Shown piece after piece: positions 23,101 to 43,272 of a stretch of 64,000 nucleotides of DNA. Position 1 is the stretch's first letter. Each line of letters begins with the position of its first letter. Made by a program: the position numbers and the translations under genes. Under the pieces are notes generated by a model. That model did not search any database. It worked only from the letters and a program-made list of their open reading frames with translations, and was not told where the DNA came from. The stretch is taken from NCBI GenBank assembly GCA_038203635.1, contig JBBRDT010000001.1, positions 22,003-86,002 on the forward strand, written 5' to 3'. The stretch is from Solirubrobacterales bacterium (GTDB taxonomy: Bacteria; Actinomycetota; Thermoleophilia; Solirubrobacterales; JBBDJG01).

Positions 23101-25347
23101 CTCGAGTGGGAGGCCGCGGACGACAACGTCGGGGTCGCCGGATATGAGGTCTACAGGGACGGTGCGTTCATCGCCTCGATCGATCCGGGCACCTCCTACT
23201 CCGACCCGGTCGGCGCAGGGACCTACGCGTACCACCTCAAGGCGATGGATCCGACGGGGAACATGTCGCAGGCGAGCAACACCGCAAACGTGACCGAGCT
23301 CGCGCCGGACACGGAGGACCCCGGTCCGCCGGCAAACCTCCAGGCGCAGGTCGCGGCCGGAAAGGTCGACCTCCTTTGGGACGCCGCCACGGACAACAGG
23401 GCGGTGACGCAATACGAGATCCGCCGCGACGGCGCGGTCGTCGCAACGATCGGGGCCGCCTCGACGTCGTGGTCCGACAGCAACGTCACGGCGCCGGTCA
23501 CGTACGAGTACGACGTACGCGCGCTCGACGCGGCGGCGAACGTGTCGCTGCCCAGCAACACCGCGAGCGCGACGGTGCCCGACACGCAGAAGCCGACGCC
23601 GCCCACGAACCTGACCGCGAACGCCACCGCGAGCCAGGTCGACCTCACGTGGGGTGCGGCGGGCGACGACGTGGCGGTTACGCAATACAGGATCTATCGC
23701 GATGGTGCGGCGATCGCGACGATCGGCCCGGGAACCTCGTGGTCCGACAGCAGTGTCACGGCTCCCGGCTACGAGTATGAGGTGCGGGCGCTCGACGCGG
23801 CCGACAACCTCTCCGACCCCAGCAACAAGGTCACCGCCACCGTGCTCGATGCCCAGAAGCCCACTGCGCCCGGGACCCTGACGGCTACCGCCGCCGGGCC
23901 GAACCAGGTCAACCTCACCTGGACGGCATCAGGCGACAACATCGGCGTGACGGGCTACCGCGTCTACCGTGACACGGCGCCGATCGCGACCATCGGAGCG
24001 GTCACCACCTTCTCTGACACGGGCGTTGCCGGCAGCACCACCTATGCGTACGAGGTCCGCGCCCTGGATGCCGCCGGCAACGTCTCCGATCCGAGCAACA
24101 CCGCCCCGGCGACCACGCCGGCCGCCTCCGCCGTGTTCAACTTCTCACCGGAGGCCGATGCCCGTACCCAGGCCTCGGCGGCCACCACCAACTACGCAAC
24201 GAGCTTCCTGCGGGTCGACGGCGGTACCGACCCGGCCGTGGAGAGCCTGCTGCGGTTCACGGTCACCGGCGCGCCGGCAGGATCAATCCGAAGCGCCAAG
24301 CTGCGCGTGTACGCCTACAGTGGAACCGTGGACGGACCGGCAGTCTTCACCACCAATCCCGCCTGGAACGAGCAGGCGATCAACTGGAACAACCGCCCAC
24401 CGCGCACCAGCGCGACCACCGATGACAAGGGCGCGATCGCGACCAACAGCTGGGTCGAGTACGACGTCACCTCCTTCGTCACGAGCAACGGCACCTACAG
24501 CTTCGGGCTGGCCGGCACCTCCACCGACGGCGTCGACATCTACTCAAAGGAATCCGCGACCCTGCGACCGGAGCTCGTGGTGACGACCGGCGCCCCGGAC
24601 ACGCAGAAGCCCACGCCGCCACCCACCCTCGCCGCGACCGTCATGACCGCGTCGCGGGTCGATCTCTCCTGGCAGCCCGCGGGCGACAACGTCGGGGTGA
24701 CCGGCTACCAGGTCCTGCGCAACGGCAACCAGATCGCGAGCCTCGGGGTGACGACGGCGTACTCCGACACGTCCGTCGCGGCGAACACTTCCTACACCTA
24801 CCAGGTCCGCGCGGTGGACGCCGCCGGCAACGTCTCGGACCCCAGCAACTCCGCGCCGGCCGCGACACCGCCGGTGGCGACGGTGCTGACCCTCTCCCCC
24901 GAGGCGGACGCCCGTACCCAGGAGGCGAACCCGACCACCAACTACGGGACCGCCTACCTGCGCGTGAACGGCGGCTCCGAGCTGGACGTCGAGACCCTCG
25001 TGCGCTTCACCGTGACCGGAGCCCCGGCGGGAAGCGTGGCGAGCGCCAAGCTGCGCCTCTACAACTACAACGGCACCGCGGACGGCCCGGCTCTTTACCC
25101 GACCGTCACATCCTGGAACGAGACCGCGGTCAGCTGGAACACGCGACCGGCCCGCACGAGTGGTACCCCGACGGACGACAAGGGCGCGATCGCGAAAAAC
25201 ACCTGGGTCGAGTACAACGTGACGCCTCTCGTGACCGGGAACGGCACGTACAGCTTCGCCCTGGCCACGACCTCCAGCGACGGCATCGACTTCTACAACC
25301 GCGAGGCGGCAACGCTGCGCCCCGAGCTCGTGGTGACGCTGCGCTAG
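20173..25347 (+). CDS. giant secreted protein: PAP-type metallophosphoesterase + 12 FN3 repeats + 2 DNRLRE-like beta-sandwich modules
   Basis: ATG 20173 gives the signal peptide MHKRRGIACVAIVGALFAHFGAAGASA|ADP. Motifs GDIAC / GDMQY / GNHEY / FWHDP / GHAHSYE. FN3 units read KP(S/T)xPxNLTAxAxxxxxVDLSWxASTDNVGVTGYRVYRDG...YxYxVRAxDAAGNxSDPS. Two ~150-aa modules carry NY(A/G)T..LRV..LxRFTV..AKLR(V/L)Y..W(N)E..(I/V)xWN(N/T)RP..RPELVVT. Confidence 0.9.
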   Translation: MHKRRGIACVAIVGALFAHFGAAGASAADPVIAAAGDIACSSSSSNYNGGNGVSDRCRQKYTSNLIFNAGLSAVLVLGDMQYESASLSGINSSYNPTWGRVKSITRPALGNHEYKTANAAGYFDYFNGSGAATGPAGERGKGYYSFDVGTWHLIALNSSDHCTIVSCAAASAQEVWLKADLAANSSKYCTLAFWHDPRFNSGHDGNADEMKPLFQALYDANADLMLGGHAHSYERFAPQNPAGGLDNARGIRQFVVGTGGAFWTSIGTPKPNSEVRQNSTYGVLKLTLRPTGYDYQFAPEAGKTFTDSGTGTCHGGTPPPTDTIKPSIPGNVRATAGTGQVSLLWNQSTDNVGVTGYQVFRGATQVATLGSVTSYTDPNLAPGTYSYTVRAVDGAGNVSDASAAASATVADTTKPTPPTLTATASAGQVALSWQGATDNVGVTGYQLYRGATQIATLGGAVTSYTDANLAAGGYSYTVRAVDAAGLSSDASNTASATVPDTTKPTTPTLSATGSAGQVALSWTVSTDNVAVTGYEVFRGSVRIAVLGPSANSYADTGLSPGTYFYAVRSFDAANNFSISSNTASGTVPDGLKPSAPGNLTASAPTSAAVDLSWVASTDNVGVTGYRVYRDGALIASPGAAATSYSDSAVSATVTYHYVVRAIDAAGNLSDPSSDVPVTVPDTVKPSAPGNLHTTAVTSSQVDLAWNASTDNVAVTGYRVFRNDVPIADVSAATLSYSDGPITPGTYRYTVRAVDGAGNVSDASTEVTATVPDTEKPTTPQNLDATARGAFQVDLTWDASTDNVGVASYLIYRNDVHIDTVSGTDTSYTDNVLAPDLYTYYVRAVDDAGNLSDPSNTDSATVVPPDDELPTVPGNLTAALNGTDRVDLNWEESSDNVLVTGYRIYRNDELIKTIGPGSSWSDTGVPARDHEYRVRAEDAAGNLSDPSNPAGVIVPDTAPPSPPGNLTASAPDGGPVLLEWEAADDNVGVAGYEVYRDGAFIASIDPGTSYSDPVGAGTYAYHLKAMDPTGNMSQASNTANVTELAPDTEDPGPPANLQAQVAAGKVDLLWDAATDNRAVTQYEIRRDGAVVATIGAASTSWSDSNVTAPVTYEYDVRALDAAANVSLPSNTASATVPDTQKPTPPTNLTANATASQVDLTWGAAGDDVAVTQYRIYRDGAAIATIGPGTSWSDSSVTAPGYEYEVRALDAADNLSDPSNKVTATVLDAQKPTAPGTLTATAAGPNQVNLTWTASGDNIGVTGYRVYRDTAPIATIGAVTTFSDTGVAGSTTYAYEVRALDAAGNVSDPSNTAPATTPAASAVFNFSPEADARTQASAATTNYATSFLRVDGGTDPAVESLLRFTVTGAPAGSIRSAKLRVYAYSGTVDGPAVFTTNPAWNEQAINWNNRPPRTSATTDDKGAIATNSWVEYDVTSFVTSNGTYSFGLAGTSTDGVDIYSKESATLRPELVVTTGAPDTQKPTPPPTLAATVMTASRVDLSWQPAGDNVGVTGYQVLRNGNQIASLGVTTAYSDTSVAANTSYTYQVRAVDAAGNVSDPSNSAPAATPPVATVLTLSPEADARTQEANPTTNYGTAYLRVNGGSELDVETLVRFTVTGAPAGSVASAKLRLYNYNGTADGPALYPTVTSWNETAVSWNTRPARTSGTPTDDKGAIAKNTWVEYNVTPLVTGNGTYSFALATTSSDGIDFYNREAATLRPELVVTLR
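21142..24120 (+). repeat. coding tandem array of 11 FN3 units (~280 nt each); a 12th unit lies at ~24601..24870
   Basis: WxxSTDNVGVTGY(R/Q/E)V(Y/F)R recurs in each unit. Confidence 0.85.
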
Positions 25348-26304: not shown

Positions 26305-27789
26305 ATGACGCTGAGCACGTGGGCGAAGGAACGCCCGGCATCCACAGATCTCGTCGTACTGGTCTTACTCGCCGTCGCATTCGCGGTGGCGGTCCTGCCG
26401 TCACAGGCGCGCGCCGCGGACCCGGTGATCGCGGCGGCCGGCAACATCGCCTGCGACCCTGCCAGCCCGTACTTCGCAGCGGGCGCGGGGACCCCTACCC
26501 GGTGCCGTCAGGCCGAGACCGCGGCGTTGCTGCCGGCCGGCCTCGCGGGCGTGCTGACTCTCGGGGACGCCCAGTACTGCTGCGGCACCCTGTCCGCGTA
26601 CACGGCTTCCTACGAGCCGGCCTGGGGCCCGCTGAAGGCTGTCACGCATCCGGCGCTCGGCAATCGTGACTACACGACGCCGGGCGCAGCCGGGTACTTC
26701 GACTACTTCAACGGGCCGGGAATTGCGGATGGCGCGGCGGGCAACCGGGACCAGGGGTACTACAGCTTCGATCTCGGCGCATGGCATCTCATCGCGCTCA
26801 ACTCGAACTGCGCTCACGTCGCCTGCGCAGCCGGCTCTGCGCAGGAGCGCTGGCTGCGCGCAGACCTCGCTGCCCATCCCAACGCCTGCACGCTTGCATA
26901 CATGCACGCGGGGCGCTACAGCTCCGGACGACCGGGCGGCGCGATCTCGGTGGCGCCTTTCTACAGGGCTCTCTACGAGGCCGGGGCCGACGTGGCCCTG
27001 GCGGGCCACGCACGGCACTACGAGCGGTTCGCGCCCCAGACCTCGGTCGGGCGCAGCCCCGCGTTCGGCATCCGTGAGTTCGTGGTCGGCACGGGCGGGC
27101 ACTCCCTGGGCACGATCGGAGCGCCCAAGAAGTACAGCGAGGTACGCCAGGACTCGACGTTCGGAGCGCTGGAGCTCACGCTACGGGCGACCGGCTACTC
27201 CTGGCGATTCATCGCCCCCGGGGGCGCGAGCTTCTCCGACTCGGGATCGGGTGGGTGTCACGGCCCGCCGCCTCCGCGCAAGCCCAAGAAGAAGCCCAAG
27301 CCCAAGCCCAAGCCGGGGCCCGCAAAGAGCAAGACGAAGTGCACCGTGCTCGGGACCCCGCGCAACGACGTCCTGCGGGGCACCCGTGGCCGGGACGTGC
27401 TCTGCGGCATGGGGGGCAACGACCGCCTCCTGGGCGGCGGCGGCAATGACGTGCTGCGCGGTGGTGACGGCAACGACCGGCTCAGCGGCGGCGCCGGGCG
27501 CGATCGCATGGACGGCAACCGCGGGAACGACGTCCTGCGTGGGGGACGAGGCCGGGACCTGCTCAGCGGAGGCGCCGGCAACGACCTGCTGCGCGGGGGA
27601 GGCGGCGCGGACCGTCTCCGCGGCGACGGCGGGCGCAACCGCGTGTTCGGTGACGCGGGCAACGACTACATCGACGTGTCCCGAAACGGAGCCCGCGACA
27701 TCGTCAACGGCGGGCGCGGCCGGGACAGGGCGAAGGCCCAACGCCGCGACAAGGTGCGCAGCATCGAGCGGCTGATCCGCCGCAAGTAG
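26305..27789 (+). CDS. secreted PAP-type metallophosphoesterase paralog with substituted active-site residues + basic KP linker + RTX-type Ca-binding nonapeptide repeats
   Basis: Signal peptide ..AVLPSQARA|ADPVIAAAGNIAC, the same mature N-terminus as the 20173 protein. Motifs GNIAC / GDAQY / GNRDY / YMHAG / GHARHYE. KPKKKPKPKPKPGP linker. About 10 GGxGxDxLx repeats. Confidence 0.85.
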   Translation: MTLSTWAKERPASTDLVVLVLLAVAFAVAVLPSQARAADPVIAAAGNIACDPASPYFAAGAGTPTRCRQAETAALLPAGLAGVLTLGDAQYCCGTLSAYTASYEPAWGPLKAVTHPALGNRDYTTPGAAGYFDYFNGPGIADGAAGNRDQGYYSFDLGAWHLIALNSNCAHVACAAGSAQERWLRADLAAHPNACTLAYMHAGRYSSGRPGGAISVAPFYRALYEAGADVALAGHARHYERFAPQTSVGRSPAFGIREFVVGTGGHSLGTIGAPKKYSEVRQDSTFGALELTLRATGYSWRFIAPGGASFSDSGSGGCHGPPPPRKPKKKPKPKPKPGPAKSKTKCTVLGTPRNDVLRGTRGRDVLCGMGGNDRLLGGGGNDVLRGGDGNDRLSGGAGRDRMDGNRGNDVLRGGRGRDLLSGGAGNDLLRGGGGADRLRGDGGRNRVFGDAGNDYIDVSRNGARDIVNGGRGRDRAKAQRRDKVRSIERLIRRK

Positions 27790-27802
27790 GACCCGCAGCG
27801 CC

Positions 27803-28606
27803 CTACTTGCTGAAGCTCACCAGTTCTTCGCGCCCGCCGCCATCCTTGGTGGTCCGCAACACGTGCCCGACGCCCCGGGCGTAGTACTTGTATTCCAGGA
27901 CCCCCGGCTCGAGCCGGGTCGTGTCCGCTGTCTTCACGGAATTCTCGAAGGTGCCGAACGGCACGGTGACCTTCGCATCCACGCTCACCACCTTGGCGGC
28001 GTCCTCGGCCTGGCCCGCGTAGTACTCCTGCCGGTAGGACAGCCCGGACCGCGGCTTCGCCGGCATGATGACCCCGGCATAGGCGCCGTCCACGCCGTGC
28101 TCCCAGGACCCCTTGGTCGACGAGACCGTCCCGTCCTTGTACTCCTTGGTGTCCTCGCCCAGATACCAGACATTGCCGTCCTTGTCCTGGGCATACCAGT
28201 CATCCGTGACCTCCACGAAGCCGCCGCCGTCGCGCTGGGTGACGGTGTCGCGCAGGACGAGGGCCTCGACGCCCTTGATCCGCTTCTTGCGGTTCGTCAC
28301 CTCGACGACGATCCGCTCCGAATCCGACGTGTAGACCCACCTCGCGCCCCGCGGCATCGGCCAGTAGGGGTGCTCGATCTTCGTCGTGAAGTCCGCGGGG
28401 TCGAGCTCGACCGGCTCGCCGCCCTGCGGCAGGTCGGCAGTGCTGTCGGCGGAGGTCGTCTCGGTCGTGGCGGTCGGGGGCGCCGCGGTCGTGGTCTGAG
28501 CAGCATTGTCGTCGCTGTCAGACCCGCAGCCCGCGACGAGCAACCCCGCCGTGAGCGCCAGTGCGAGCGCTCCGCCGACGATCAAGAGCATCGGGCGTCT
28601 CGTCAC
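27803..28606 (-). CDS. lipoprotein of unknown family (paralog of 1501..2388)
   Basis: GTG 28606 (or ATG 28591) gives VTRRPMLLIVGGALALALTAGLLVAGC|GS. The upstream Arg-rich ORF extension was rejected. DDWYAQDKDGNVWYLGE and YYARGVGHV match the 1.5-kb paralog. Confidence 0.7.
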   Translation of the reverse strand: MTRRPMLLIVGGALALALTAGLLVAGCGSDSDDNAAQTTTAAPPTATTETTSADSTADLPQGGEPVELDPADFTTKIEHPYWPMPRGARWVYTSDSERIVVEVTNRKKRIKGVEALVLRDTVTQRDGGGFVEVTDDWYAQDKDGNVWYLGEDTKEYKDGTVSSTKGSWEHGVDGAYAGVIMPAKPRSGLSYRQEYYAGQAEDAAKVVSVDAKVTVPFGTFENSVKTADTTRLEPGVLEYKYYARGVGHVLRTTKDGGGREELVSFSK

Positions 28607-33999: not shown

Positions 34000-34368
34000 C
34001 TAACGCTCGCGGATCGTGATGCGCCAGCTGCTCGGCGCGCTCGCGCTCAGGCGCCGGTAGGTGCCGCGCCGGACCGTGATCTTGCCGCGCCGGGAACGCG
34101 TCTCGAGCAGGCGAAATCCACGCGTGCCGGTTATCCGGAGCGTGCCGCGGCCCTTCGTCCAGCGCAGCGTCGCCGTGTGGCGCAGCCGGACCGTGCCGAT
34201 GCGCTTCGTGCCGCGACCACTGAAGGTCCACGTCTTGGCGGCCCTCACCTGCAATGCATCTGCGGCCGTCGCGGTACCGGCGCTTGCAAGCGAGACCTGC
34301 GCCAGCAGCGCCGCCGCCAAGAGACAGCCGACGAGCACGAAGGTCCGCGTCGGGGTCAGCGTCCTCAT
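34000..34368 (-). CDS. small secreted, extremely Arg/Thr-rich beta-strand protein
   Basis: ATG 34368 overlaps the upstream stop (ATGA). Signal peptide MRTLTPTRTFVLVGCLLAAALLAQVSLASA. The longer 279-aa ORF version was rejected. Confidence 0.55.
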   Translation of the reverse strand: MRTLTPTRTFVLVGCLLAAALLAQVSLASAGTATAADALQVRAAKTWTFSGRGTKRIGTVRLRHTATLRWTKGRGTLRITGTRGFRLLETRSRRGKITVRRGTYRRLSASAPSSWRITIRER

Positions 34369-35672
34369 GCGATCCAGACCGCCGTCGCGAGCGCCCGGCC
34401 GGGACGCAGGAAGAGCTTTACCAGCGGCGGGATGGCGATGATCGACGCGATCACGCCGCCGGCGACCAGGCCGCTGCCCGGCTGCGCCAGCGCTGCCGGC
34501 AGCTCGACCCAGACCTCGACGAGCACCGCGGCCGAGACGGCGACCAGGGCCCACGTCATGCGCCCGAGCGACACCAGCAGGCTGACGAAAAGCGTTGCGA
34601 GCGCGAGGCAGCCGAATCCCACAAACAGACTTGTAGCGATCGTGCCCGACGTCCACGGGCTGACCAGCATGCAGAGGCCCGACAGGACGGCGGTTCCAAG
34701 GGTGAGTCGCAGGATGGCTCCCGCGAGGATCACCAGCCCCGGGCCGCCGAGGTCGACCTTGTCGGCACGTGCAACCGGCGTCTCTCGCAGCGCCCGCGGC
34801 AACTCCACGTGGACACTTGACAGGTAACGCCCGCCCCACAGGCCGCCCACGGCGGATGGGATCAGCGCGAGCGCGGGCAGCGCGCCGTAAAAGCCCCAGC
34901 CGATCGTGTGGTCCGTGACCAGCAGCGCGCCGAGCCCGGCACCGATCACTCCCACCACGAGCGCCTGCACCCAGCCGCCGGTCGACGACGCGGCCGGGCC
35001 GGAGGTCGCGACCGCCGCGCCCACCGCCGCGATCGAGAAAAGCGCCGCGCCGACCAGCAGGGCAAAGGGATCAAGCTCGAATCCGAGACCGAGCCCGACG
35101 GACGCCAGTACGAGCGCATACAGGAGACCCCAGCCGCGGCTCATCAGCACCGTGCCGCTGGTCCACGTGACCAGCAGCAACGCCGCGACCGCACCGGCGT
35201 CGCCGAGCGACACCAGCAGGGCGGCGATCGCGGCAAGGCCGACGATCCCCGCCGGCCCCTCGCGGCGGAGGGATCCCAGCCCCTCCCCCTTGCTCAAGTG
35301 CCTGCTCCAGAGGATCCACTGCAAAGCGAAGGTCAAGGGCAGGGCGATTCGCACCGCCGTGTCCCACACGGCCGCGCCCAGCATGGAGTTGAGAGGCGAC
35401 GCCCACATCGCCACGGCAAGAATCGCGAGCACCAGCGACATGCCCTCCGCCATCGCGCTGCGTCCCGAGGTCTCCTGCTCCTCGATGTGGCGACGGCGCG
35501 GGGCAGGAGCGCCGACGTGTCCGATCAGCTTGCGGCCGCGGTCGATCGCTTCGCGGGCCTGCAGCCCGCACCACGCTTCGAGCACCACGGCGGCCTCGAG
35601 ACTGTCCTGCACGGGCCGGCCGAGGCGGGCCTCGACGACGGCACATGCGCGGCGGGCGTCGAGCGCCTTCAT
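34365..35672 (-). CDS. polytopic (10-12 TM) membrane protein, candidate exopolysaccharide export/polymerisation component (PelG-position)
   Basis: ATG 35672 overlaps the pelF-like stop (ATGA). About 75-aa soluble head, then Ala/Gly/Leu-rich TM helices. No motif was recognised. The 801-aa ORF version was rejected because its N-terminus is out-of-frame read-through of pelF. Confidence 0.7.
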   Translation of the reverse strand: MKALDARRACAVVEARLGRPVQDSLEAAVVLEAWCGLQAREAIDRGRKLIGHVGAPAPRRRHIEEQETSGRSAMAEGMSLVLAILAVAMWASPLNSMLGAAVWDTAVRIALPLTFALQWILWSRHLSKGEGLGSLRREGPAGIVGLAAIAALLVSLGDAGAVAALLLVTWTSGTVLMSRGWGLLYALVLASVGLGLGFELDPFALLVGAALFSIAAVGAAVATSGPAASSTGGWVQALVVGVIGAGLGALLVTDHTIGWGFYGALPALALIPSAVGGLWGGRYLSSVHVELPRALRETPVARADKVDLGGPGLVILAGAILRLTLGTAVLSGLCMLVSPWTSGTIATSLFVGFGCLALATLFVSLLVSLGRMTWALVAVSAAVLVEVWVELPAALAQPGSGLVAGGVIASIIAIPPLVKLFLRPGRALATAVWIA

Positions 35673-37153
35673 GCCGCCACCAAGTGGGTCGTCATGTGGC
35701 CGAACAGCTCGCGGTAGCCGCCGAGGCAGGTTTCCTTGGTGAACCTGCGCGCAACCCGCTGGTGGCCGCGCTTGCCGAGACGGGAGGCCAGAGCAGGATC
35801 GCTCAGGATGGTCGTCGTCGCCACCGCGATGGCGTGCACGTCGCAGGGCGGCGCCACGATTCCGCAGCCGCGGAGCACCTCGGGCACTCCGCCGACCGAG
35901 GTCGCGACGACCGGGCGGCCCTGCGCCAGCGCCTCGAGGATGCCCATCGGCAGGCCTTCGGAGATGCTCGTCATCAAGAGCATGTCGGCCGCGTGCAGCG
36001 CACCCGTCACGTCCCGTGTGCTGCCCATGAACTTGAAGCGCTCGTCCAGCCCGAGCTGACGGTGCAGGTCCTCGCACGACTTGGCGTAGGCCTCCTGCTC
36101 GGGAGAGGAGGGCCCGTAGTAGAGGAACCGTGCGTGCGGCAACCTTTCGAGGACCTCGACCGCGACGCGCAGCATGGTGTGCACGTCCTTCAGCGGGTCG
36201 ATACGTCCGATCGCGACGACCGTCGCGGTGTCCGGGAGCGGCTGGGGCTGCTCGGGCTCGCCGATGCCGTTGTGGATCACCTTGACCTTGGCCGGGTCCA
36301 CGCCCATCGCCACGGCCCACTTCGCGTTGGCCTCGGACACGGGTGAGATCACGTCGGCCGCCGCGTAGGTGGCGAGGGCAAGCCCCCGCGCGAGTCGCGT
36401 CGACACGAAGCGCTGGCCAGGGGCAGACCGGCTGCGGGCGGCCGCGAGGTAGCTCTCGCGCACGTAGACGCCGTGCTCCGTGAGCAGGATCGGCGTGCCA
36501 TGGATTGCCTTGTGCACCAGCGCGGGGACCGCAGCCCAGCCCGCGCACGTGACGTGCAGCAGATCGGTCTCGGGCGTCGGGGTGCTCGCGGTGCGAGCTA
36601 CCCAGTAAAGGGTCTGATAGAGCGTTGCGGCCTCGACCGTGTCGAGCTCGGGAGCAGGGGCGGAGCCGTGGGTCTGCTCGGCGAGCACCTCCTGCAGCGC
36701 GCGCAGGAACTGCTCCCAGCCGCGCCGGCTGCGAAATGCCGACCGGACTCCGTCGGGGTGGCGCCGGCACCAGACCAGCGCGTCGATCAAAGCTTGGTGG
36801 TCACCGTCCCAGCCGATCAGGGTCCGCACGAGCGTGCTCGCAAGCGCGGCATTCGCCTTGCCCGGGCGGCGCTTGCGGGGAGGCGCGTCGCCCGACCAGA
36901 GGTCGATGCTCGGGAGGAGCTCGGCGTGCGCCGGCACCTCGAAGGAACGACGGTCGCGGTCAGAGGCCGCGACGATCGGGAGAACCTGCCAGTGGATCTC
37001 GGGGATCCCGTCGATCAGCAGGTCGCACCAGGAGCTCACCCCGCCGATCACGTGGGGGTACGTTCCCTCGGTGATCAGCAGGACGCGGGCACCCGGCCGG
37101 GCCGAACGGGACGGGGCACGCGGCGGCCGAATCGATGTGTCGATCGGCACCAC
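35669..37153 (-). CDS. pelF: PelF-like GT4 glycosyltransferase with N-terminal DUF3492 domain
   Basis: VLLITEGTYPHVIGGVSSWCDLLI is the DUF3492/PelF N-terminal signature. C-terminal GT4 motif SISEGLPMGILEALAQGRPVVATSVGGVPE. Confidence 0.8.
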   Translation of the reverse strand: MVPIDTSIRPPRAPSRSARPGARVLLITEGTYPHVIGGVSSWCDLLIDGIPEIHWQVLPIVAASDRDRRSFEVPAHAELLPSIDLWSGDAPPRKRRPGKANAALASTLVRTLIGWDGDHQALIDALVWCRRHPDGVRSAFRSRRGWEQFLRALQEVLAEQTHGSAPAPELDTVEAATLYQTLYWVARTASTPTPETDLLHVTCAGWAAVPALVHKAIHGTPILLTEHGVYVRESYLAAARSRSAPGQRFVSTRLARGLALATYAAADVISPVSEANAKWAVAMGVDPAKVKVIHNGIGEPEQPQPLPDTATVVAIGRIDPLKDVHTMLRVAVEVLERLPHARFLYYGPSSPEQEAYAKSCEDLHRQLGLDERFKFMGSTRDVTGALHAADMLLMTSISEGLPMGILEALAQGRPVVATSVGGVPEVLRGCGIVAPPCDVHAIAVATTTILSDPALASRLGKRGHQRVARRFTKETCLGGYRELFGHMTTHLVAA

Positions 37154-37188
37154 GTACCCCGTTCGCTCAGTCCGTTGCTACTCGACGC

Positions 37189-39006
37189 CTAGGGAAGGAG
37201 CTTGGCGTTGAGCTGCAGTGTCTTGCCCGGAGCAATCGACGCGTAACCGGACGTCGTGCCTCCGTACAGGGTGCCCAGGCCGGTTGCACCGGCGAGCGGG
37301 ACCTGCAGCGTGGAGGTTGCGTTGGACTTGACTGTGACCTTGCCGTTCTGCATGAACGCCTCGACCTGCGGTGAGAGGGACTCCCACTGGGTCTGGGTCG
37401 TGATCAGACCGGCGGCTTCCTTGTGAATCGGCTGAACCAGCTCCGGCTTGAAGTACGACCGGTAGCGCTTCAGGACCTCGTCCATCACGGAGTACATGAC
37501 TCCGTCCTTGGCCAGGTTGGCCTGGTGCATGTAGTGAGGCCGCGGGTCGTTGCCGAGCACGTGGCGCAGCACCTGCGAGGCCTCTCTGTCGATGTACTCG
37601 CTCCACGTGGCCGGCTTCGAGAAGCAGGTCGTCGTGGACGAGTTGACGCACGCGCCTCCGAGCTCCGGCGGCAAGTACAGGTAGTTGTACTCGTCGAGCT
37701 GCTCTTTGCGGGTTGCGGTGTTGTAGTACACGTTCGTCGGGTACCGCGGCAGGCTCATTGCGGGGCCGAGCTGCCACTGCGCCGGACGACGCGAGTTGTC
37801 GTCACCGAACGTCCTGATGCCGGTGTCGGTGAACACCTGAGCCATGTTCGGGTTGAACAGGCCGGAGTGCTCGCCGGTGACCAGCTCGGTCGGGTCGATC
37901 GGCAGGCCCTTGCTCTTCGCCCACGCGACGTTCTTCTGGATCTCGTCCTTGATCTGGGCGTACGTGAGGTCGTCCAGGTTCGGATGACTGTAGGTGTGGT
38001 TGATCCAGTAGAAGTACTTCTTGGCGCTCAGCAGTGCTGCAGTGAGCCGGTCTCTGCTTCCGGCTTCGACAGCGCCCTCACCGTTGAAGGCCATGTCGAT
38101 ACGGAAGTCGTGCACCTGTGACCAGACGACGGCCCGGAGGACGTCGAACTGAGTCATCCGGTTCGGCCTGACCTCGGTCTCGGCGTTCGCCACCGTGTCC
38201 CAGCGCGCGCTGCCCTGGAAGACGTCGTCCACCTGGACCGTGAGGTAGTTGCGCTCGGTACCGAGGTACACACCGCGCGTGACCCAGCTCAGCATCCCGT
38301 GACGCAGGAGCTGGTTCTGGAGCTGGTACTGGTTCGAGTCGAACGTCGAGACCATCTCCTCGCGACCGTCAGGGCGCGTGTTGATGCCGACCAGGGCGGA
38401 GTTGCCCGGGCCCGTGACGAGCGTCTTGAACTTCGAGCCAGTCGCAGGTGTGGCCTGGTAGCCCCACGTGTACTGGTCGATCGGCACGTTGCCCTTGAGG
38501 TAGGGGAACGTGGTCAGCCCCTGGGCCGTCAGCTTGCCGACGACGCCGCCGAGCTCGCCGCTGACCGTGGGGGTGTTGAGGCCGTACTCGGCCGACGGGT
38601 AGACGACCCCGGTGACCTGACGGATGCCGTACTTGACCTCGAAGTCGGCCAGCGCGGCCCACTCCTCGGTGCTGAGCGCCGACGGGTAGGTGCCGTTGCT
38701 CTCGTAGACGAGACCGCCGGTTGCGACGATCACGGCCTCGTACTTCGCACGCGGCGCGCCGTCCACCGTGTCGGCGAACGTGGAAGCCGTGTAAGGCTCG
38801 TCGTTGGTGGCGATCTTCTTCTCGTAGGGGACGCCTTCGCGCTTCATGGCTGCCTCCCAGGCGGAGGTTGAGGGCTCCGTCCCGTTCGCCGACAGCAGCA
38901 GGACCTTCAGGTCCGTGCGCTGGTTCGGCATCGCAGCCGAGGCCGCCGAAGGGACCATGAGGAAAATGGCGACGACCATCATCGCCAGGGGGGTGAGTCT
39001 TTTCAC
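37189..39006 (-). CDS. secreted 605-aa protein, candidate polysaccharide deacetylase (CE4-superfamily / Agd3-like)
   Basis: GTG start after AAGGAGG. Signal peptide MKRLTPLAMMVVAIFLMVPSAASA. VQVDDVF (DD) lies about 76 residues before INHTYSHPNL (H-x3-H), the CE4-type metal triad arrangement. The function call is tentative. Confidence 0.55.
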   Translation of the reverse strand: MKRLTPLAMMVVAIFLMVPSAASAAMPNQRTDLKVLLLSANGTEPSTSAWEAAMKREGVPYEKKIATNDEPYTASTFADTVDGAPRAKYEAVIVATGGLVYESNGTYPSALSTEEWAALADFEVKYGIRQVTGVVYPSAEYGLNTPTVSGELGGVVGKLTAQGLTTFPYLKGNVPIDQYTWGYQATPATGSKFKTLVTGPGNSALVGINTRPDGREEMVSTFDSNQYQLQNQLLRHGMLSWVTRGVYLGTERNYLTVQVDDVFQGSARWDTVANAETEVRPNRMTQFDVLRAVVWSQVHDFRIDMAFNGEGAVEAGSRDRLTAALLSAKKYFYWINHTYSHPNLDDLTYAQIKDEIQKNVAWAKSKGLPIDPTELVTGEHSGLFNPNMAQVFTDTGIRTFGDDNSRRPAQWQLGPAMSLPRYPTNVYYNTATRKEQLDEYNYLYLPPELGGACVNSSTTTCFSKPATWSEYIDREASQVLRHVLGNDPRPHYMHQANLAKDGVMYSVMDEVLKRYRSYFKPELVQPIHKEAAGLITTQTQWESLSPQVEAFMQNGKVTVKSNATSTLQVPLAGATGLGTLYGGTTSGYASIAPGKTLQLNAKLLP

Positions 39007-39665
39007 CGTCGTGCCTCCTTGAGGTGTCCGTGTGAGCGGGGTCCGTTGGGGGTTGGGTTGTCCATCAGTTGGCCTGACGGCGTGAGTCCTGCGAGCCGTG
39101 CTTCGAGGCCGGCCATCACCTGGCCGATCTCGCTGCAGACCTCCAGGAGTGCGTTGCGCATCACGATCGCCTCGGTGAGGACGTGCAGGGCTTCGTCGCC
39201 TTGCTCCGCGTGCTCAGCGTGCTCCTGGTTCGAAGGGCCGTGCTCCTCCTCGGGAGTCGAGGAAGGAGTGGGGAGCGCCCGCAGGCGCTCGATCACGTGC
39301 CCGACGTTCGGCGGCGCTTCGAGCTTGACCCGCAAGCGGGCGTTCTCTTCGCGCAGCAAAAGTGCGTCGGCCTCGAGCGCGTCGACAATCTCGCCGCTCC
39401 GGCCTTCGGTGCGCCGCGTCAGCCGGCGAAGCGAACGAAACGGGTCGCGCGGGGCGCGCTCCGTTGCAGCGTCAGCCGTGCCGGTCTGCGGCGCGTCAAA
39501 TATGGGGTTAGGGGTAGCTTGGGCCGGAGACGGGGCGCCCTTGGAGGAGGGCGGATTCCAGTCCACGTCCAGGCTTGGATTCCGTTCCAAGATCCTGCGA
39601 CTCCATCGTGCTCGGGGGAGAGCGGGGACGCACTCCAATGTATGGACGAATGGTCTACGGCGCAA
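39003..39665 (-). CDS. hypothetical protein with coiled-coil-like and acidic/His-rich segments; start uncertain
   Basis: Its stop overlaps the next start (GTGA), and the RBS of the next gene lies in its 3' end. ALEADALLLREENARLRVKLEA. The 5' third has low GC3, so the true start may be internal. Confidence 0.45.
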   Translation of the reverse strand: MRRRPFVHTLECVPALPRARWSRRILERNPSLDVDWNPPSSKGAPSPAQATPNPIFDAPQTGTADAATERAPRDPFRSLRRLTRRTEGRSGEIVDALEADALLLREENARLRVKLEAPPNVGHVIERLRALPTPSSTPEEEHGPSNQEHAEHAEQGDEALHVLTEAIVMRNALLEVCSEIGQVMAGLEARLAGLTPSGQLMDNPTPNGPRSHGHLKEARR

Positions 39666-39679
39666 ACGAAAGTTAAAGG

Positions 39680-39715
39680 GGCCGTCATTTGCTCAGCCGC
39701 AAATGACGGGTGCTC
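39680..39715. repeat. 36-nt hairpin element, copy 1 (11-bp stem ccgtcatttgc / gcaaatgacgg)
   Basis: ggccgtcatttgctcagccgcaaatgacgggtgctc. Its reverse complement matches copy 2 at 34/36 positions. Confidence 0.85.
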
Positions 39716-39755
39716 CGTGCTACGGCCGCGTGGTTGTCGGATAAGGTCGCCGCGA

Positions 39756-41237
39756 ATGGCCGCGAGCACCCAGAACGGGAGACCGTCCAGATCGCCCACG
39801 GTGGCCATCGTGGGAGCCGGCATGTCCGGCATCTGCATGGGCATCAAGCTCAAGCAGGCCGGCATCGAGTCCTTCACGATCTACGAGAAGGCCGCGCGGG
39901 TCGGCGGGACCTGGCGCGAGAACACCTACCCGGGGCTCGAATGCGACGTTCCGTCCCGCTTCTACTCGTACTCGTTCGAGCCGAATCCCGACTGGACCAA
40001 GTACTACTCACCCGGGAGCGAGATCCAGCGGTACTTCGAAGGAGTCGCCGACAGGTATGGCATGCACTCCCACACCCGCTTCGGCAAGGAGGTCGAGCGT
40101 GCGGAGTTCGAGGATGGATCCTGGCGGATCAGGATGCGCGACGGAGAGGAAACCGAGGCCGACTTCCTGATCTCCGCGTGCGGCGTCCTCCACCATCCGC
40201 GGTACCCGAGCATCCCCGGCCTGGAGAGCTTTGCCGGCGACGTCTTCCATTCCGCCCGGTGGGATCACGACGTGGCGCTCGAGGGGCGGCGCATCGGGAT
40301 GATCGGCACCGGCTCGACCGGCGTCCAGATCACGTGTGCGCTGTCGGAGGTCGCCGGCCGCCTCGAGATCTTCCAGCGCACGGCGCAGTGGGTGTTTCCC
40401 GGGCAGAACCCCAGCTATCGCGCGCTGACGCGGCGGATCATGCGCCGCTTTCCGATCCTGAACCGCCTCTCCTACCGGTTCTGGCAGAAGTACTTCGAGC
40501 ATCTGATCGGACGGGCCGTGGTTCAGCCTGGCTGGCAGCGGCGGTTCGTCGACACGCTGTGCCGGCTGAATCTCAGGAGGGTCCGCGACCCGCTGCTCCG
40601 CGCAAAGCTGACGCCCGACTACGACCCCATGTGCAAGCGGCTGGTGGTGTCGGCGAACTTCTACAAGGCCGTCCAGCAGCCGAACGTCGACGTGGTCACG
40701 AAGGCGATCGACCGCGTCGAGCCGGAGGGCATCGTGACCCGGGACGGCAAGCTCCATCCCCTCGACGTGCTCGTGCTCGCCACCGGCTTCGACGCCCACG
40801 CGTACCTGCGCCCGATCGCACTGACGGGACCGGACGGGAACACGCTCGACGACGCCTGGCGGGACGGCCCGCGCGCCTACCGCACGGTCGGGGTGCCGGG
40901 CTTTCCGAATTTCTTCATGCTGATGGGGCCCCACAGCCCGATCGGCAACCAGTCGCTCGTGATCGTCGCCGAGACGCAGGCCGACTACGTGATGCAGCTG
41001 ATCCAGATGTTCCGCGAGGGCCGCATCGACTCGGCGGCGCCGACCGCCGAGGCGACCGAGCGCTTCAACCGGCAGATGCGCGACGCGATGCCGGCGACGG
41101 CCTGGGTGACCGGCTGCAACAGCTGGTATCTCGGCAAGGACGGCCTGCCGGAGCTGTGGCCGTGGACGCCAGAACGCCACCGCGAGATGCTGCGGACCCC
41201 CGAGCTCGGGGAGTTCGAGCTCGACCCGGCTATATGA
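39756..41237 (+). CDS. class B flavin-containing (Baeyer-Villiger type) monooxygenase
   Basis: ATG 39756. VAIVGAGMSGICMGIKLKQAG (FAD GxGxxG), GGTWRENTYPGLECDVPS, GMIGTGSTGVQ (NADP GxGxxG). The 684-aa ORF extension was rejected. Confidence 0.9.
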   Translation: MAASTQNGRPSRSPTVAIVGAGMSGICMGIKLKQAGIESFTIYEKAARVGGTWRENTYPGLECDVPSRFYSYSFEPNPDWTKYYSPGSEIQRYFEGVADRYGMHSHTRFGKEVERAEFEDGSWRIRMRDGEETEADFLISACGVLHHPRYPSIPGLESFAGDVFHSARWDHDVALEGRRIGMIGTGSTGVQITCALSEVAGRLEIFQRTAQWVFPGQNPSYRALTRRIMRRFPILNRLSYRFWQKYFEHLIGRAVVQPGWQRRFVDTLCRLNLRRVRDPLLRAKLTPDYDPMCKRLVVSANFYKAVQQPNVDVVTKAIDRVEPEGIVTRDGKLHPLDVLVLATGFDAHAYLRPIALTGPDGNTLDDAWRDGPRAYRTVGVPGFPNFFMLMGPHSPIGNQSLVIVAETQADYVMQLIQMFREGRIDSAAPTAEATERFNRQMRDAMPATAWVTGCNSWYLGKDGLPELWPWTPERHREMLRTPELGEFELDPAI

Positions 41238-41248
41238 CGCGCACTACA

Positions 41249-41284
41249 GAGCTCCCGTCATTTGCGGCTAAGCAAATGACGGCC
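41249..41284. repeat. 36-nt hairpin element, copy 2 (inverted relative to copy 1)
   Basis: gagctcccgtcatttgcggctaagcaaatgacggcc, sitting between convergent gene ends. Confidence 0.85.
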
Positions 41285-41286
41285 TA

Positions 41287-43272
41287 TCAAGCCACTTCGC
41301 GCGCGGCCACGGCGACGGTGCCGCTGGAGGCAAGCCACGTCGTGAAGTCCTGCGGCGGCAGCGGGCGGCTCAGGTGGAACCCCTGGGCCACGTTGCAGCC
41401 AAGCCCCGCCAACTCGTCCATGGTCGCCTGGTCCTCCACGCCCTCGGCCACGACCTGCAGGCTGAGGTTGTGGGCCAGGTCGATGGTGGAGCGCACGATG
41501 AAGGCGTCGCCCCTGTTCGAGGTCATCGCCTCGACAAAGGTGCGGTCGATCTTCAGCTCGTTGACGGGCAGCTCCTTCAGGTACGAGAGCGACGAGTAGC
41601 CGGTGCCGAAGTCGTCGATCGAAAGCGCGATGCCCATGTTGTGGAGGCGCTTCAGCACCTCCAGCGAGCGCTGGGGATCGACCATCATGGTGCTCTCGGT
41701 GATCTCCAGCTCGACCGACGAGGCGGGCAGCCGCCACCGCGAAAGCAGTTGCGATACGTCCTGCGGAAGATGCGGGTCGAGCAGGTCGCGAGTGGAGAGG
41801 TTGACCGAGACCTTCAGATCCATGCCCTCGTCGCGCCACTCGCGGCACTGGGAAAGCGCCATGTTCAGGACGTAGCGGCTCAACGGCTTGATCAGCCCCG
41901 TGTGCTCGGCCATCGGGACGAACTCGGCAGGAGGCAGGAGACCCCGCGTGGGGTGCTGCCAGCGGACCAGCGCCTCGGCGCCGACGATCTTGCCTGTCTC
42001 GAGGTCGACCTTCGGCTGGTAGTGGAGCAGGACCTGGTTTTCCTGGAGGCCCTTCTTCAGCTCCCCGACCATCGCCAGCCGGACCGGGTTGTAGGGGTCG
42101 TGGTCGACGGAGTAGACCTCGTACCCGGTGTGCTTCTTCTTGGCCTCGTACATGGCGACGTCGGCGTGCTGCAGAAGCATGTCGACGTCCTCCCCGTGCT
42201 CCGGGTAAAGGGCGATGCCGACGCTCGCGTCGATGTGGACGGGAAGCTCGTCCACCACGAAGTCGTGATCGAGCGCGGAGCGGATCTTCTTCGCCGCGTC
42301 GGTCGCGCCGCCGGCGTGGCCGAGGCCGGGAAGCAGGACGCCGAACTCGTCGCCACCGAGGCGGGCGATCGTGTCGCTGTCACGCAGCGTTGCCCGCAGG
42401 CGCAGCCCGATCTCCTTGAGCAGGTGATCCCCTTTCTGATGGCCGAGGGTGTCGTTGACCTCCTTGAAGCGATCGAGGTCGATCAGCAGCACAGCGCCGA
42501 GCACGCGCTCCCGCCGTCCATGTCGCAGCGCCTGCTCGATGCGGTCATGGAACAGAGTCCGGTTCGGCAGGTCGGTGAGCGAATCGTGCAGCGCCTGGTG
42601 ACGGTTCTCGGCCGCGTGGCGCCGCAGGCGGCGGGATGCGGAGACGACGATGCGGAACAGCACTAGATACAGCAGCGCGAGGCCGCCAAAGAGGATCAGG
42701 TAGAGCTTCTTGGTATCGCGATTGATGGCGGCGGCGATGGGGTCGTAGGGCATGTAGATCTCGAACGCCCCGGCGGGAACGCCCGCCGCCCCGAACTCGA
42801 GCGGCACGTACACCTCGAGCAGCCGGCCGAATCCCCGCTCCTCCGCGTTCTCGACCTCGTCCGCGCCGGTGACCTCCGACGACACCTCCCCGTCGAGCGC
42901 CTCTTCGAGGTCCCCTCCCAGGGGGAACTTGCGATTCACGATCTTGGAGTCGTCCGAGTAGACGACCCGGCCGGAACGGTTCCACAGCTTGATGCGGGCG
43001 ATTCGCTCGGAGACCTGGCTGTTCCGCAGCTCGCCGTTGAGCACTCTCAGCTCCTCGCGGCTCAGCCCATCACGAACGTCGCCCGGTGTCAGGTGCTGCT
43101 GGACCGACGACTGCGAGATGAGCTGCGCGGTCTCCTCGGCATTCGCGAGGCTCCGGGATGTCACCTGGTCCTTCACGGTGCGGGCCAGCACAACCCCGAG
43201 CAGGACGATGGGAATCAGGCTCATCACGCTGAATCGCCCGACCAGGCCGAGTTTGGGCAGCCGCCGGCGCAT
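41287..43272 (-). CDS. membrane sensor GGDEF-EAL c-di-GMP turnover protein
   Basis: N-terminal TM, about 150-aa extracytoplasmic segment, second TM. HDSLTDLPNR..GGDEFGVLL. EALVRWQHP..EITES..DDFGTGYSSLSYL. Confidence 0.9.
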   Translation of the reverse strand: MRRRLPKLGLVGRFSVMSLIPIVLLGVVLARTVKDQVTSRSLANAEETAQLISQSSVQQHLTPGDVRDGLSREELRVLNGELRNSQVSERIARIKLWNRSGRVVYSDDSKIVNRKFPLGGDLEEALDGEVSSEVTGADEVENAEERGFGRLLEVYVPLEFGAAGVPAGAFEIYMPYDPIAAAINRDTKKLYLILFGGLALLYLVLFRIVVSASRRLRRHAAENRHQALHDSLTDLPNRTLFHDRIEQALRHGRRERVLGAVLLIDLDRFKEVNDTLGHQKGDHLLKEIGLRLRATLRDSDTIARLGGDEFGVLLPGLGHAGGATDAAKKIRSALDHDFVVDELPVHIDASVGIALYPEHGEDVDMLLQHADVAMYEAKKKHTGYEVYSVDHDPYNPVRLAMVGELKKGLQENQVLLHYQPKVDLETGKIVGAEALVRWQHPTRGLLPPAEFVPMAEHTGLIKPLSRYVLNMALSQCREWRDEGMDLKVSVNLSTRDLLDPHLPQDVSQLLSRWRLPASSVELEITESTMMVDPQRSLEVLKRLHNMGIALSIDDFGTGYSSLSYLKELPVNELKIDRTFVEAMTSNRGDAFIVRSTIDLAHNLSLQVVAEGVEDQATMDELAGLGCNVAQGFHLSRPLPPQDFTTWLASSGTVAVAAREVA

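Follow-up and report, generated by a model that had tools for sequence, protein, structure and literature searches.

The two hairpins on either side of a flavin monooxygenase gene in the analysed stretch of Solirubrobacterales DNA (the window, 64,000 nt) are very likely independent members of a Solirubrobacterales-specific family of intergenic palindromes of about 50 nt, which resemble REP or TRIT elements. The inverted-repeat comparison of the window aligned the arms 39680-39718 and 41246-41284 over 39 nt with 92% complementarity. Re-comparison confirmed the original prediction that 39680-39715 and 41249-41284 are reverse complements at 34 of 36 positions and that each copy contains a perfect 11-bp stem, here closing a 6-nt loop; the mismatches within the 36-nt arms lie in the loop (TCAGCC vs TTAGCC) and at the first base of the tail. 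The weaker similarity noticed further towards the gene is also real and represents the conserved 3' tail of the family. The perfect CCGTCATTTGC-N6-GCAAATGACGG hairpin of each copy (39682-39709 and 41255-41282) has a predicted folding energy of about -18 kcal/mol, and the motif was found exactly twice in the 64 kb, as compared to 0 expected from 100 shuffles. The locus is composed of the following features.

39003-39590, minus strand: small conserved ORF of about 195 aa, first gene of an Agd3-type polysaccharide operon and divergent from the monooxygenase gene (GC3 and gene calls of relatives).
39674-39681, plus strand: leader of copy 1, purine-rich TAAAGGGG, starting with a stop triplet; the family profile has a conserved A-rich leader ending in GG here, and the leader is missing from the empty site of L068.
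39682-39709, plus strand: hairpin of copy 1 (HP1), CCGTCATTTGC / loop TCAGCC / GCAAATGACGG; the corresponding sites of L067 and L071 carry the same hairpin, those of L068-70 none.
39710-39739, plus strand: 3' tail of copy 1, beginning GTGCTCCGTGCTACGGCCGC, and the rest of the segment inserted relative to L068 (nhmmer match and alignment A1).
39742-39747, plus strand: putative -10 box TAAGGT, 8 nt 5' of the monooxygenase ATG.
39756-41237, plus strand: FMO-like flavin monooxygenase CDS of 493 aa, the "bracketed" gene (Pfam FMO-like, Pyr_redox_3).
41241-41254, minus strand: 3' tail of copy 2, reading GAGCTCTGTAGTGC on the minus strand (nhmmer match).
41255-41282, minus strand: hairpin of copy 2 (HP1), CCGTCATTTGC / TTAGCC / GCAAATGACGG on the minus strand; present in L067, absent in L071.
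41283-41289, minus strand: leader of copy 2 (TAGG), immediately 3' of the TGA stop of the GGDEF-EAL gene; the leader side lies 4 nt from the stop, the typical position in the family.
41287-43272, minus strand: GGDEF-EAL gene, convergent with the monooxygenase (FMO) gene and the variable gene of the locus (Pfam GGDEF, EAL).

The nhmmer matches to the family profile cover 39674-39724 for copy 1 and 41241-41288 on the minus strand for copy 2. As originally predicted, copy 1 is located in a divergent intergenic region (START/START), with no gene upstream on either strand, and copy 2 where the FMO gene (stop at 41237) and the GGDEF-EAL gene (stop at 41287) converge. The small minus-strand ORF on the other side of copy 1 shows GC3 of the coding type between 39003 and about 39500, and gene calling recovered it in all relatives (190-194 aa in L067, L068 and L071); it had no match in Pfam. 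The START/START position of copy 1 is atypical of the family. The promoter scan found no sigma-70 consensus upstream of the FMO gene. The motif TA(A/G)GGT-N8-ATG is kept in the window, in L067, in L071 and in the element-free L068, and the spacing of the putative -10 box suggests a leaderless FMO mRNA.

The orthologous loci L067-71 point to separate histories of the two copies. The FMO orthologues are 84-95% identical and lie in the same synteny in all of them, with both hairpins in L067 as in the window, with only the upstream hairpin (copy 1) in L071 and with no hairpin in L068-70. In alignment A1 the filled and empty sites differ by a clean insertion of 51-62 nt, the right junction of the copy 1 insertion lying just 5' of ATAAGGTC; at the 84%-level divergence of this comparison no target-site duplication was discernible, and the exact target was likewise not definable. 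The GGDEF-EAL gene was found in the window and L067 and is absent from L068-71; in L071, which has no copy 2, a remnant of this gene abuts the FMO stop, and the FMO stop of L067 falls within the hairpin loop. In this history copy 1, which the window, L067 and L071 have in common, entered immediately 5' of the -10 region of the FMO gene, and copy 2, restricted to the window and L067, came later, where the FMO and GGDEF-EAL genes converge. One FMO CDS (39756-41237) is indeed flanked by the hairpins, but the significance that had been given to this enclosure did not hold; the gene is enclosed as a result of the element having settled in both intergenic gaps beside it. In view of the TTAGCC loop and GAGCTCTGTA-type tail that they share, copy 2 may be a local daughter of copy 1, but a copy in L026 is equally similar.

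These loci also bear on the proposal that the inverted 11-6-11 sites are recombination termini, similar to those of pdif modules, which would make the monooxygenase a mobile, minimal gene cassette. In their 28-bp 11-6-11 geometry and inverted orientation the two sites agree with pdif modules (PMC6449649), and other inward-facing pairs bracket a variable segment or a gene, i.e., a 2.4-kb ABC module in L026 that is missing from the window and an alpha/beta-hydrolase in L049; half-copies, which start exactly at the loop boundary, also occur in the family. However, the synteny of the FMO gene is unchanged with no site (L068-70) or with one (L071), and the ABC module stands at the same site in L076 without hairpins, so that neither is gained or lost together with its flanking sites. 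Moreover, most copies are solitary and lie beside housekeeping genes, no recombinase was found nearby, the plasmid and phage collections searched with the hairpin gave no match, and the arms covary whereas the spacer (loop) is conserved, which is the reverse of the pattern of recombinase sites. A cassette is therefore extremely improbable. The single match on a viral contig (L133, the same contig as L087) was a chance match without the stem. Integron attC sites carry R''/R' cores (RYYYAAC/GTTRRRY) at the base of the stem and form arrays of the same orientation near intI/attI. An attC-like site was rejected, as TTAGGC resembles TTRRRY but occupies the loop and follows a C where attC has G; the examined loci contained neither an array of differing cassettes nor an integrase.

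The REP/MITE-like family that had been offered as one possible explanation was borne out. Exact copies of the hairpin are present at about 27 loci in one 3.9-Mb Solirubrobacterales chromosome (OY970293.1), further copies in five other Solirubrobacterales MAGs and also in soil metagenomes, and stem variants exist as well. The unit of about 50 nt is composed of a purine-rich leader, an 11-bp stem, a 6-nt loop TTAGGC/TTAGCC and a 3' tail, GAGCTCCGAGGGCTCG or a variant of it, with GAGCTC(C/T)G... as the conserved sequence. Between relatives these units are gained or lost as discrete indels of about 50-60 nt. Most copies are single, and direct tandem copies occur in L002, L005, L020 and L110; one adjacent inverted doublet was seen (L032). 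The L002 array consists of four units with a 73-bp period, identical including the intervening sequence, and a CRISPR-like array was rejected because its "spacers" are the same in all four units and not unique. The element is retained at the same gene end in L030 and L033 at about 81% flanking identity, with an intact stem to which one C-G pair has been added. A MITE is defined by terminal inverted repeats and a target-site duplication; the two ends of the unit described here are not inverted repeats of each other. The Rfam search with the hairpin gave no match and no REP family described for Solirubrobacterales was found in the literature, and the hairpin family is apparently undescribed until now.

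The stem of the family covaries, while the loop and the tail are constant. In the first set of copies, helix 1 was 99.1% paired, five of the 11 pairs were changed on both sides, and the covariation score was reached by none of 500 shuffles. An unbiased set was obtained by searching on the loop and tail only, with the stem left unspecified: 47 of the 57 matches had a stem with 9-11 of 11 positions complementary, and at least 14 stem sequences were present with the same loop and tail. The second hairpin, in the tail, was 67.5% paired and is weakly supported. Wobble pairs favoured the leader-to-tail strand in about five copies and the other strand in two, a difference that is not significant. The invariance of the loop and tail beside a covarying stem points to a specific recognition partner, and the hairpin may be recognised as a folded single strand, either as DNA during spread or as RNA in function. 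A coding role (the ATG in the right arm; a TTG...TGA mini-ORF overlapping as ATGA) was rejected, as there are stem variants without ATG. The right-arm ATG shares its reading frame with the downstream ORF at some loci (L011, L059).

The same covariation weighs on the proposal of paired operators, according to which a palindrome-binding transcription factor, possibly with DNA looping, would bind both sites and regulate the monooxygenase. In favour of operators, each site is a perfect 11-bp inverted repeat and the putative FMO -10 box is next to copy 1, but the Pfam scan of the window genes found no regulator gene adjoining the hairpins, and relatives with the same gene arrangement have no sites. 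Operators have conserved half-sites near the regulated promoter or the cognate regulator; here the half-sites vary yet stay complementary, most copies are at gene 3' ends, and the whole unit of about 50 nt, including the non-palindromic leader and tail, follows dozens of unrelated genes and occurs in tandem arrays. Stem variants carry other arm sequences with loop and tail unchanged. Covarying arms with a conserved loop are the reverse of the pattern expected from a dimeric DNA-binding protein that reads the sequence. The operator explanation is disfavoured and is considered highly improbable.

All copies are intergenic or at gene ends. They adjoin ordinary and unrelated housekeeping genes, usually with the leader side 1-12 nt past the stop codon. 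In the first set the leader side faced a gene end in 30 of 43 copies, about 20 of these lying within 12 nt, and it was within 15 nt of a stop codon in about 20 of the 43; in an independent set it faced an END in 24 copies and a START in 12, 16 of 43 were within 15 nt of a stop, and at least one side faced an END in 36 of 43. A stop triplet was found no more than 16 nt from the leader in 35 of 45 copies, as compared to 21% at random positions. About 15% of the copies are in START/START regions. A replication-strand bias was rejected, the orientation being mixed in both halves of OY970293.1.

Such positions could also be expected of ordinary intrinsic terminators, i.e., hairpins of independent origin, each selected for termination, that do not descend from one element. 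The association with gene 3' ends is strong, in many copies the stem is followed on one strand by a CCTTTT(C) tract, and copy 2 sits between convergent genes. A canonical intrinsic terminator is a GC-rich stem followed by a U-tract of 7-9 nt, downstream of the gene it terminates. The sequence after copy 2 on the FMO strand is CCTATCAAG, without the canonical 7-9 nt U-tract, and the terminator scan of 39300-41500 called neither window hairpin; in the family as a whole the U-rich side is on the strand opposite to the closely abutting upstream gene, and the leader of the most abundant metagenomic subfamily (AACAATT) gives a poor U-tract. Stem, loop, leader and tail are near-identical over dozens of loci and across species, which means common descent and not independent origin; the discrete indels, the tandem arrays and half-copies and the START/START copies, copy 1 among them, also speak against independent terminators, which are very improbable here. 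The original prediction had named a ubiquitous terminator as the result that would overturn it. In essence this result was obtained, since the hairpins do follow many unrelated genes and are unpaired as a rule, except that they are not canonical U-tract terminators.

For the preferred explanation, a dispersed family of independent members, the position of the copies suggests a role for those that are retained. They may act as 3'-end stem-loops, i.e., as mRNA stabilisers, terminators or insulators, and judged from sequence the family function is probably that of a 3'-end RNA hairpin. The stem-loop of copy 2 would serve both convergent genes, FMO and GGDEF-EAL. Copy 1, lying in a promoter region, would be an off-type insertion; the FMO transcript probably does not include it, and its effect is probably neutral or promoter-modulating.

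How the family spreads is addressed by a specific version of the same explanation, in which a RAYT (Y1 HUH transposase), encoded by a single-copy gene at another site of the genome, mobilises the elements. In REP/REPIN systems the cognate RAYT gene typically has REPs on its flanks. A conserved-flank hairpin with a covarying stem fits the recognition of single-stranded DNA by HUH Y1 enzymes (PMC3116915, PMC5581495), the elements are extragenic, and the inverted doublet of L032 is in line with REPINs. Nevertheless, phmmer with E. coli RayT as the single seed found no RAYT-like ORF in 567 kb of sequence, in which about 5% of the reference chromosome is represented, and no Y1_Tnp (Y1/RAYT) or integrase was found among the genes between copies. 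In addition, most copies are singlets or direct tandems and not REPIN doublets, and the copy number is low (tens). RAYT-REPIN systems have been described mainly in Proteobacteria. Mobilisation by a RAYT in this strict sense is considered unlikely.

A more far-reaching possibility, which we regard as tentative, is that the family is the substrate of a dedicated Thermoleophilia factor that reads the UUAGGC loop and the GAGCUCCGAGGG tail on the folded single strand, while the insertions actively remodel gene ends. The factor would be a new hairpin-specific mobilising enzyme, analogous to RAYT, or alternatively an RNA-binding 3'-end or termination factor, as proposed for mycobacterial TRITs. The insertions may have supplied stop codons (the FMO stop of L067, in the loop) and N-terminal codons (the ABC ATPase of L026), and may have displaced promoter -35 regions (copy 1).

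For the window, neither a mini-cassette nor a dedicated regulatory palindrome surrounds the monooxygenase, which removes a tempting reading of this locus. At the same time, a REP/TRIT-like structured repeat family is documented in Solirubrobacterales, an abundant but little-studied order of soil actinobacteria, and its stem covariation with an invariant loop and tail is unusually clear. Such families may serve as transcript-end markers for annotation and as strain-typing loci, and they may help to explain how mRNA 3' ends are set in those high-GC Actinobacteria that have few canonical terminators.

As compared to the known systems, the family is similar to the proteobacterial REP (repetitive extragenic palindromic)/REPIN sequences in being short, multi-copy, lineage-restricted extragenic palindromes that often lie just past stop codons, sometimes form clusters or arrays, persist vertically and are believed to act in the stabilisation or termination of mRNAs at the 3' end. 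Many short palindromic extragenic repeats per genome, the mark of REPs, were found here at a modest copy number (tens, whereas REPs number hundreds). REPINs replicate as a pair of inverted REPs that fold into one larger hairpin, which is not what is found here: the copies are mostly single hairpins or direct tandems, with no GTAG-type 5' tetranucleotide. With canonical intrinsic terminators the family has in common the stable stem-loop at the 3' end of genes and, in many copies, a short T-rich stretch on one flank. Its members differ from them in their common ancestry, in a relatively AT-rich stem and in a U-tract that is short, missing or, with respect to the abutting gene, on the "wrong" strand, and some lie in promoter regions. 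In the pdif/dif modules of Acinetobacter, XerC/D sites flank gene modules (PMC6449649, PMC5790767). The 28-bp geometry is alike and genes may sit between inversely oriented sites, but in pdif the conserved parts, bound by protein, are the arms, and sites and modules travel together, whereas here it is the central 6 nt that are conserved. TRITs (Tuberculosis Rho-independent terminators) of Mycobacterium are about 147 sequence-conserved palindromic copies in one genus, with very narrow positions relative to the stop codon, mostly overlapping the end of the CDS (around -8), and their authors proposed an unknown factor that reads the conserved sequence (PMC3152330); most are bidirectional because they are palindromic (PMC3152330, the RNIE paper). 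The hosts in both cases are actinobacterial, and a conserved palindromic hairpin tightly placed at stop codons was found here too. However, sequence and host clade differ, and the Solirubrobacterales elements start 1-12 nt after the stop, their leader and tail are asymmetric, and their stems clearly covary. By this comparison, with TRIT restricted to Mycobacterium, the Solirubrobacterales family is an analogue of TRIT and not a member of it.

A repeat search of the window recovered two inverted arms of 39 nt each (39680-39718 and 41246-41284) that were 92% complementary, and confirmed the originally predicted match of two 36-nt copies as reverse complements at 34 of 36 positions. Both arms include a perfect hairpin, CCGTCATTTGC-N6-GCAAATGACGG, at 39682-39709 (copy 1) and 41255-41282 (copy 2), with a folding energy of about -18 kcal/mol in a window of about 68% G+C. 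Across the 64 kb of the window there are exactly two occurrences of the motif, where shuffled sequences gave an expectation of none, and the family profile also found copies 1 and 2 only. The weaker similarity reported on the gene-proximal side was real and corresponds to the 3' tail of a repeat family. The genes at the locus are as follows.

39003 to about 39590, minus strand: small ORF, the divergent left neighbour and first gene of an Agd3-type polysaccharide operon
39756-41237: the enclosed CDS, a monooxygenase as predicted, of the FMO-like flavin type (FMO)
41287-43272, minus strand: GGDEF-EAL gene, the right neighbour, convergent with FMO

The database version of the FMO protein (P0001, 471 aa) starts at 39822, 22 codons after the ATG at 39756; the 493-aa form is more plausible because a start at 39822 would cut into the GxGxxG FAD-binding strand. 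The cluster at 34365-39006 resembles a galactosaminogalactan/Pel-like exopolysaccharide system: it holds an Agd3-type deacetylase with CBM87 and a GT4 glycosyltransferase with DUF3492, and in relatives also a Glyco_hydro_114 gene. Upstream of the minus-strand small ORF and this operon, a block of about 60 nt (39591-39650, GATCCTGCGACTCCATCGTGCTCGGGGGAGAGCGGGGACGCACTCCAATGTATGGACG) is nearly invariant in the window and in three related loci (L067, L068 and L071), while the adjoining intergenic sequence has diverged; it had no Rfam match and is a candidate promoter or regulatory 5'-UTR element.

The original prediction of a REP/MITE-like element family was right, since dispersed copies are present across Solirubrobacterales genomes. 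One genome per species, a set that did not include the window's own genome, was scanned with the pattern CGTCATTTGC-N3-9-GCAAATGACG, and 66 stretches matched, about 27 of them on one complete Solirubrobacterales chromosome (OY970293.1, 3.88 Mb) and further ones in five other Solirubrobacterales MAGs and one Actinomycetota MAG. Matches in other phyla were rejected as family members, as their loop lengths and flanks differ and they look like chance. Put in one orientation, the copies defined an asymmetric unit of about 50 nt with the following parts.

Leader: purine-rich, consensus AAaAGG
Stem: 11 bp
Loop: TTAGGC or TTAGCC
3' tail: GAGCTCCGAGGGCTCG, or variants such as GAGCTCTGTACTACGG

Direct tandem copies were found at L002 (four, 73-bp period) and at L005 and L020 (45-nt periods), together with half-copies beginning at the loop. 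The four tandem units of L002 (5378-5651; OY970293.1, about 13.4 kb) are identical, each consisting of the element and a portion of the genuine GC-rich terminator next to it (AGAAAGAAGGCGGCC...GGCCGCCTTCTTTCT + TTTG). The unit matched no Rfam family and nothing in plasmid and phage collections, and a literature search for such repeats in Solirubrobacter found no paper. The family appears to be undescribed.

Searching the loci with the loop only revealed units with other stems, e.g. CCGGTTTTTGC, CCGGAATTTCC, CCGGTTTTCGC, CCGTGATTTGC and CCGTCATTTCC, all perfectly self-complementary and with loop and tail unchanged. Across 42 distinct copies the 11-bp helix was 99.1% paired, five helix positions had changes on both sides, no internal pair was broken, and none of 500 shuffles reached the observed covariation score. 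Because these 42 copies had been chosen for pairing, the test was repeated without specifying the stem, by scanning metagenome contigs for TTAGGC-N11-GAGCTCCGAGGG. Of 57 matches, 47 had an 11-bp stem immediately around the loop with 9-11 of 11 positions complementary, representing at least 14 different stem sequences, and the remainder were evident chance hits. The tail contains a further small hairpin (GAGCUC-CGA-GGGCUC), which had a pairing of only 67.5%, is missing in part from one locus, L030, and was not relied on. As judged from these copies, the conserved feature of the family is its structure.

The original prediction also considered the hairpins as termini of a minimal gene cassette. 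Monooxygenase orthologues were searched on long contigs, and all of those found have the same synteny as the window.

L067: FMO 95% identical; hairpin upstream and downstream; GGDEF-EAL present
L071: FMO 84% identical; hairpin upstream only; GGDEF-EAL absent (33-nt remnant)
L068-70: FMO 84% identical; no hairpin upstream or downstream; GGDEF-EAL absent

Even in L068-70 the gene order (Agd3 operon, small ORF, FMO, acyl-CoA dehydrogenase, BBE oxidase) is retained. The occurrence of a syntenic FMO gene with two, one or no hairpins rules out a cassette and shows that copies 1 and 2 were acquired at different times. In the alignment of the upstream site (A1), the window, L067 and L071 each have a clean filled site, in which a unit of 51-62 nt separates ...CGAAAnTT from ATAGGGTC, and L068 runs through uninterrupted as an empty site. 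The variable gene at the locus is GGDEF-EAL, not the monooxygenase; in L071 (7405-7473) its 33-nt 3'-end remnant directly abuts the FMO stop and is fused to it by an overlapping CTAG, so that a deletion is indicated at this locus. In L067 (7394-7421) the FMO reading frame enters the downstream element and ends at a TAA within the hairpin loop, so the element has rewritten the C-terminus of the protein.

The cassette idea was also tested on a second bracketed segment and failed. L026, a locus of one scanned genome whose synteny with the window at about 77% nucleotide identity assigns the window to Solirubrobacterales, carries a 2.4-kb ABC-transporter module (3404-5771) that is absent from the window at position 27789/27803 and from L074, L075 and L077, and its edges carry an inward-facing pair, one standard and one stem-variant unit, like the FMO arrangement. 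In L076 (5797-8013) the module occupies the same site with a hairpin at neither junction, thus the elements colonised both junctions independently of the module. Inward-facing pairs arise because, as a rule, the leader side comes to lie next to an outer gene's stop codon. The module is an ABC-2 exporter operon (ATPase, permease, secreted protein) whose presence between two convergent genes varies among close relatives; in its place the window has just 13 nt of spacer (27789-27803). The only in-frame start codon of the L026 ATPase lies within the leader of the stem-variant unit (5722-5771), and the ORF continues through the entire hairpin (MNGISLGGNSGSSDVRIEARGL...); the element-free L076 orthologue has a different 5' end. 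The reading frame of the L026 ATPase seems to be broken by a frameshift at a run of G, which probably reflects an assembly error. Elsewhere, several segments of window 20250-24600 match one L026 stretch (283-964) at 66-83% identity, indicating internal repeats, probably of Ig-like/CBM96 domains in a very large secreted protein.

Gene context was analysed with genes called by a GC3-based method. In the first set of 43 copies, the leader side faced a gene end in 30, with about 20 of these lying no more than 12 nt from the stop codon; the tail side faced a start in 24 and an end in 17. In an independent metagenomic set, ends outnumbered starts on both the leader side (24 vs 12; 16 within 15 nt) and the tail side (23 vs 12), and at least one side faced an end in 36 of 43 copies. 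A stop triplet lay within 16 nt of the leader in 35 of 45 copies, compared with 21% of random positions. Copy 2 is a typical member: its leader begins 4 nt past the stop codon of GGDEF-EAL, and the FMO stop lies 17 nt from its tail side. Copy 1, between two gene starts, belongs to an atypical minority (about 15% of copies). The flanking genes are unrelated and ordinary (citrate synthase, PfkB kinase, MlaE, TetR regulator, prephenate dehydratase next to gyrA, alpha/beta-hydrolase), and unit orientation showed no correspondence with replichore.

Copy 1 has the same 22 stem bases in the window as in L067, and one change among them in L071, with loop and tail diverged. L030 and L033, at about 81% flanking identity, carry the same element at the same gene end, its stem intact with one added C-G pair. 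This retention of stems argues for constraint on the hairpin or homogenisation of the copies. At one orthologous intergenic site (L046:2100-2240 and L058:6440-6510, 84.5% identity) the unit lies in opposite orientations, and L046 has an extra half-copy and still carries the other orientation's tail in reverse complement, which suggests turnover at a hotspot by re-insertion or flipping.

Comparison of the copies demonstrated a family whose members are discrete units of about 50 nt situated at gene ends; relatives differ by their gain and loss, and the stem stays paired, with an invariant loop and tail. The unit would be recognised as a folded single strand, and retained copies would serve as 3'-end stem-loops; copy 2, between two convergent genes, could protect or terminate both transcripts. 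Neither window copy qualifies as a canonical U-tract terminator. Directly downstream of copy 1 is TA(A/G)GGT-N8-ATG, conserved with or without the element. TA(A/G)GGT is read as the putative -10 box of an FMO mRNA without a leader; copy 1 would then take the place of the -35 region and lie outside the FMO transcript, making 5'-3' RNA pairing of the two copies unlikely. The paired operators of the original prediction were not supported.

Acinetobacter pdif sites (PMC6449649) share the 11-6-11 geometry, but the hairpin family fails both tests of their defining features, conserved arms and co-mobility with a module. Unlike REPIN-RAYT systems (PMC3116915, PMC5581495), the copies are mostly singlets or direct tandems, their number is low, and a RAYT was not found in the sequence searched: no Y1/RAYT transposase or integrase lay between copy pairs, and an E. 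coli RayT query had no match in 567 kb, a small fraction of any one genome. By analogy, REP elements and the mycobacterial TRIT motif come closest to the family. TRIT comprises 147 conserved palindromic copies in one genus only, tightly placed at stop codons, and its authors suggested that an unknown factor reads the conserved sequence (PMC3152330). The family belongs to a kind of system already known and is a neat case of structure-constrained repeats in an understudied order.
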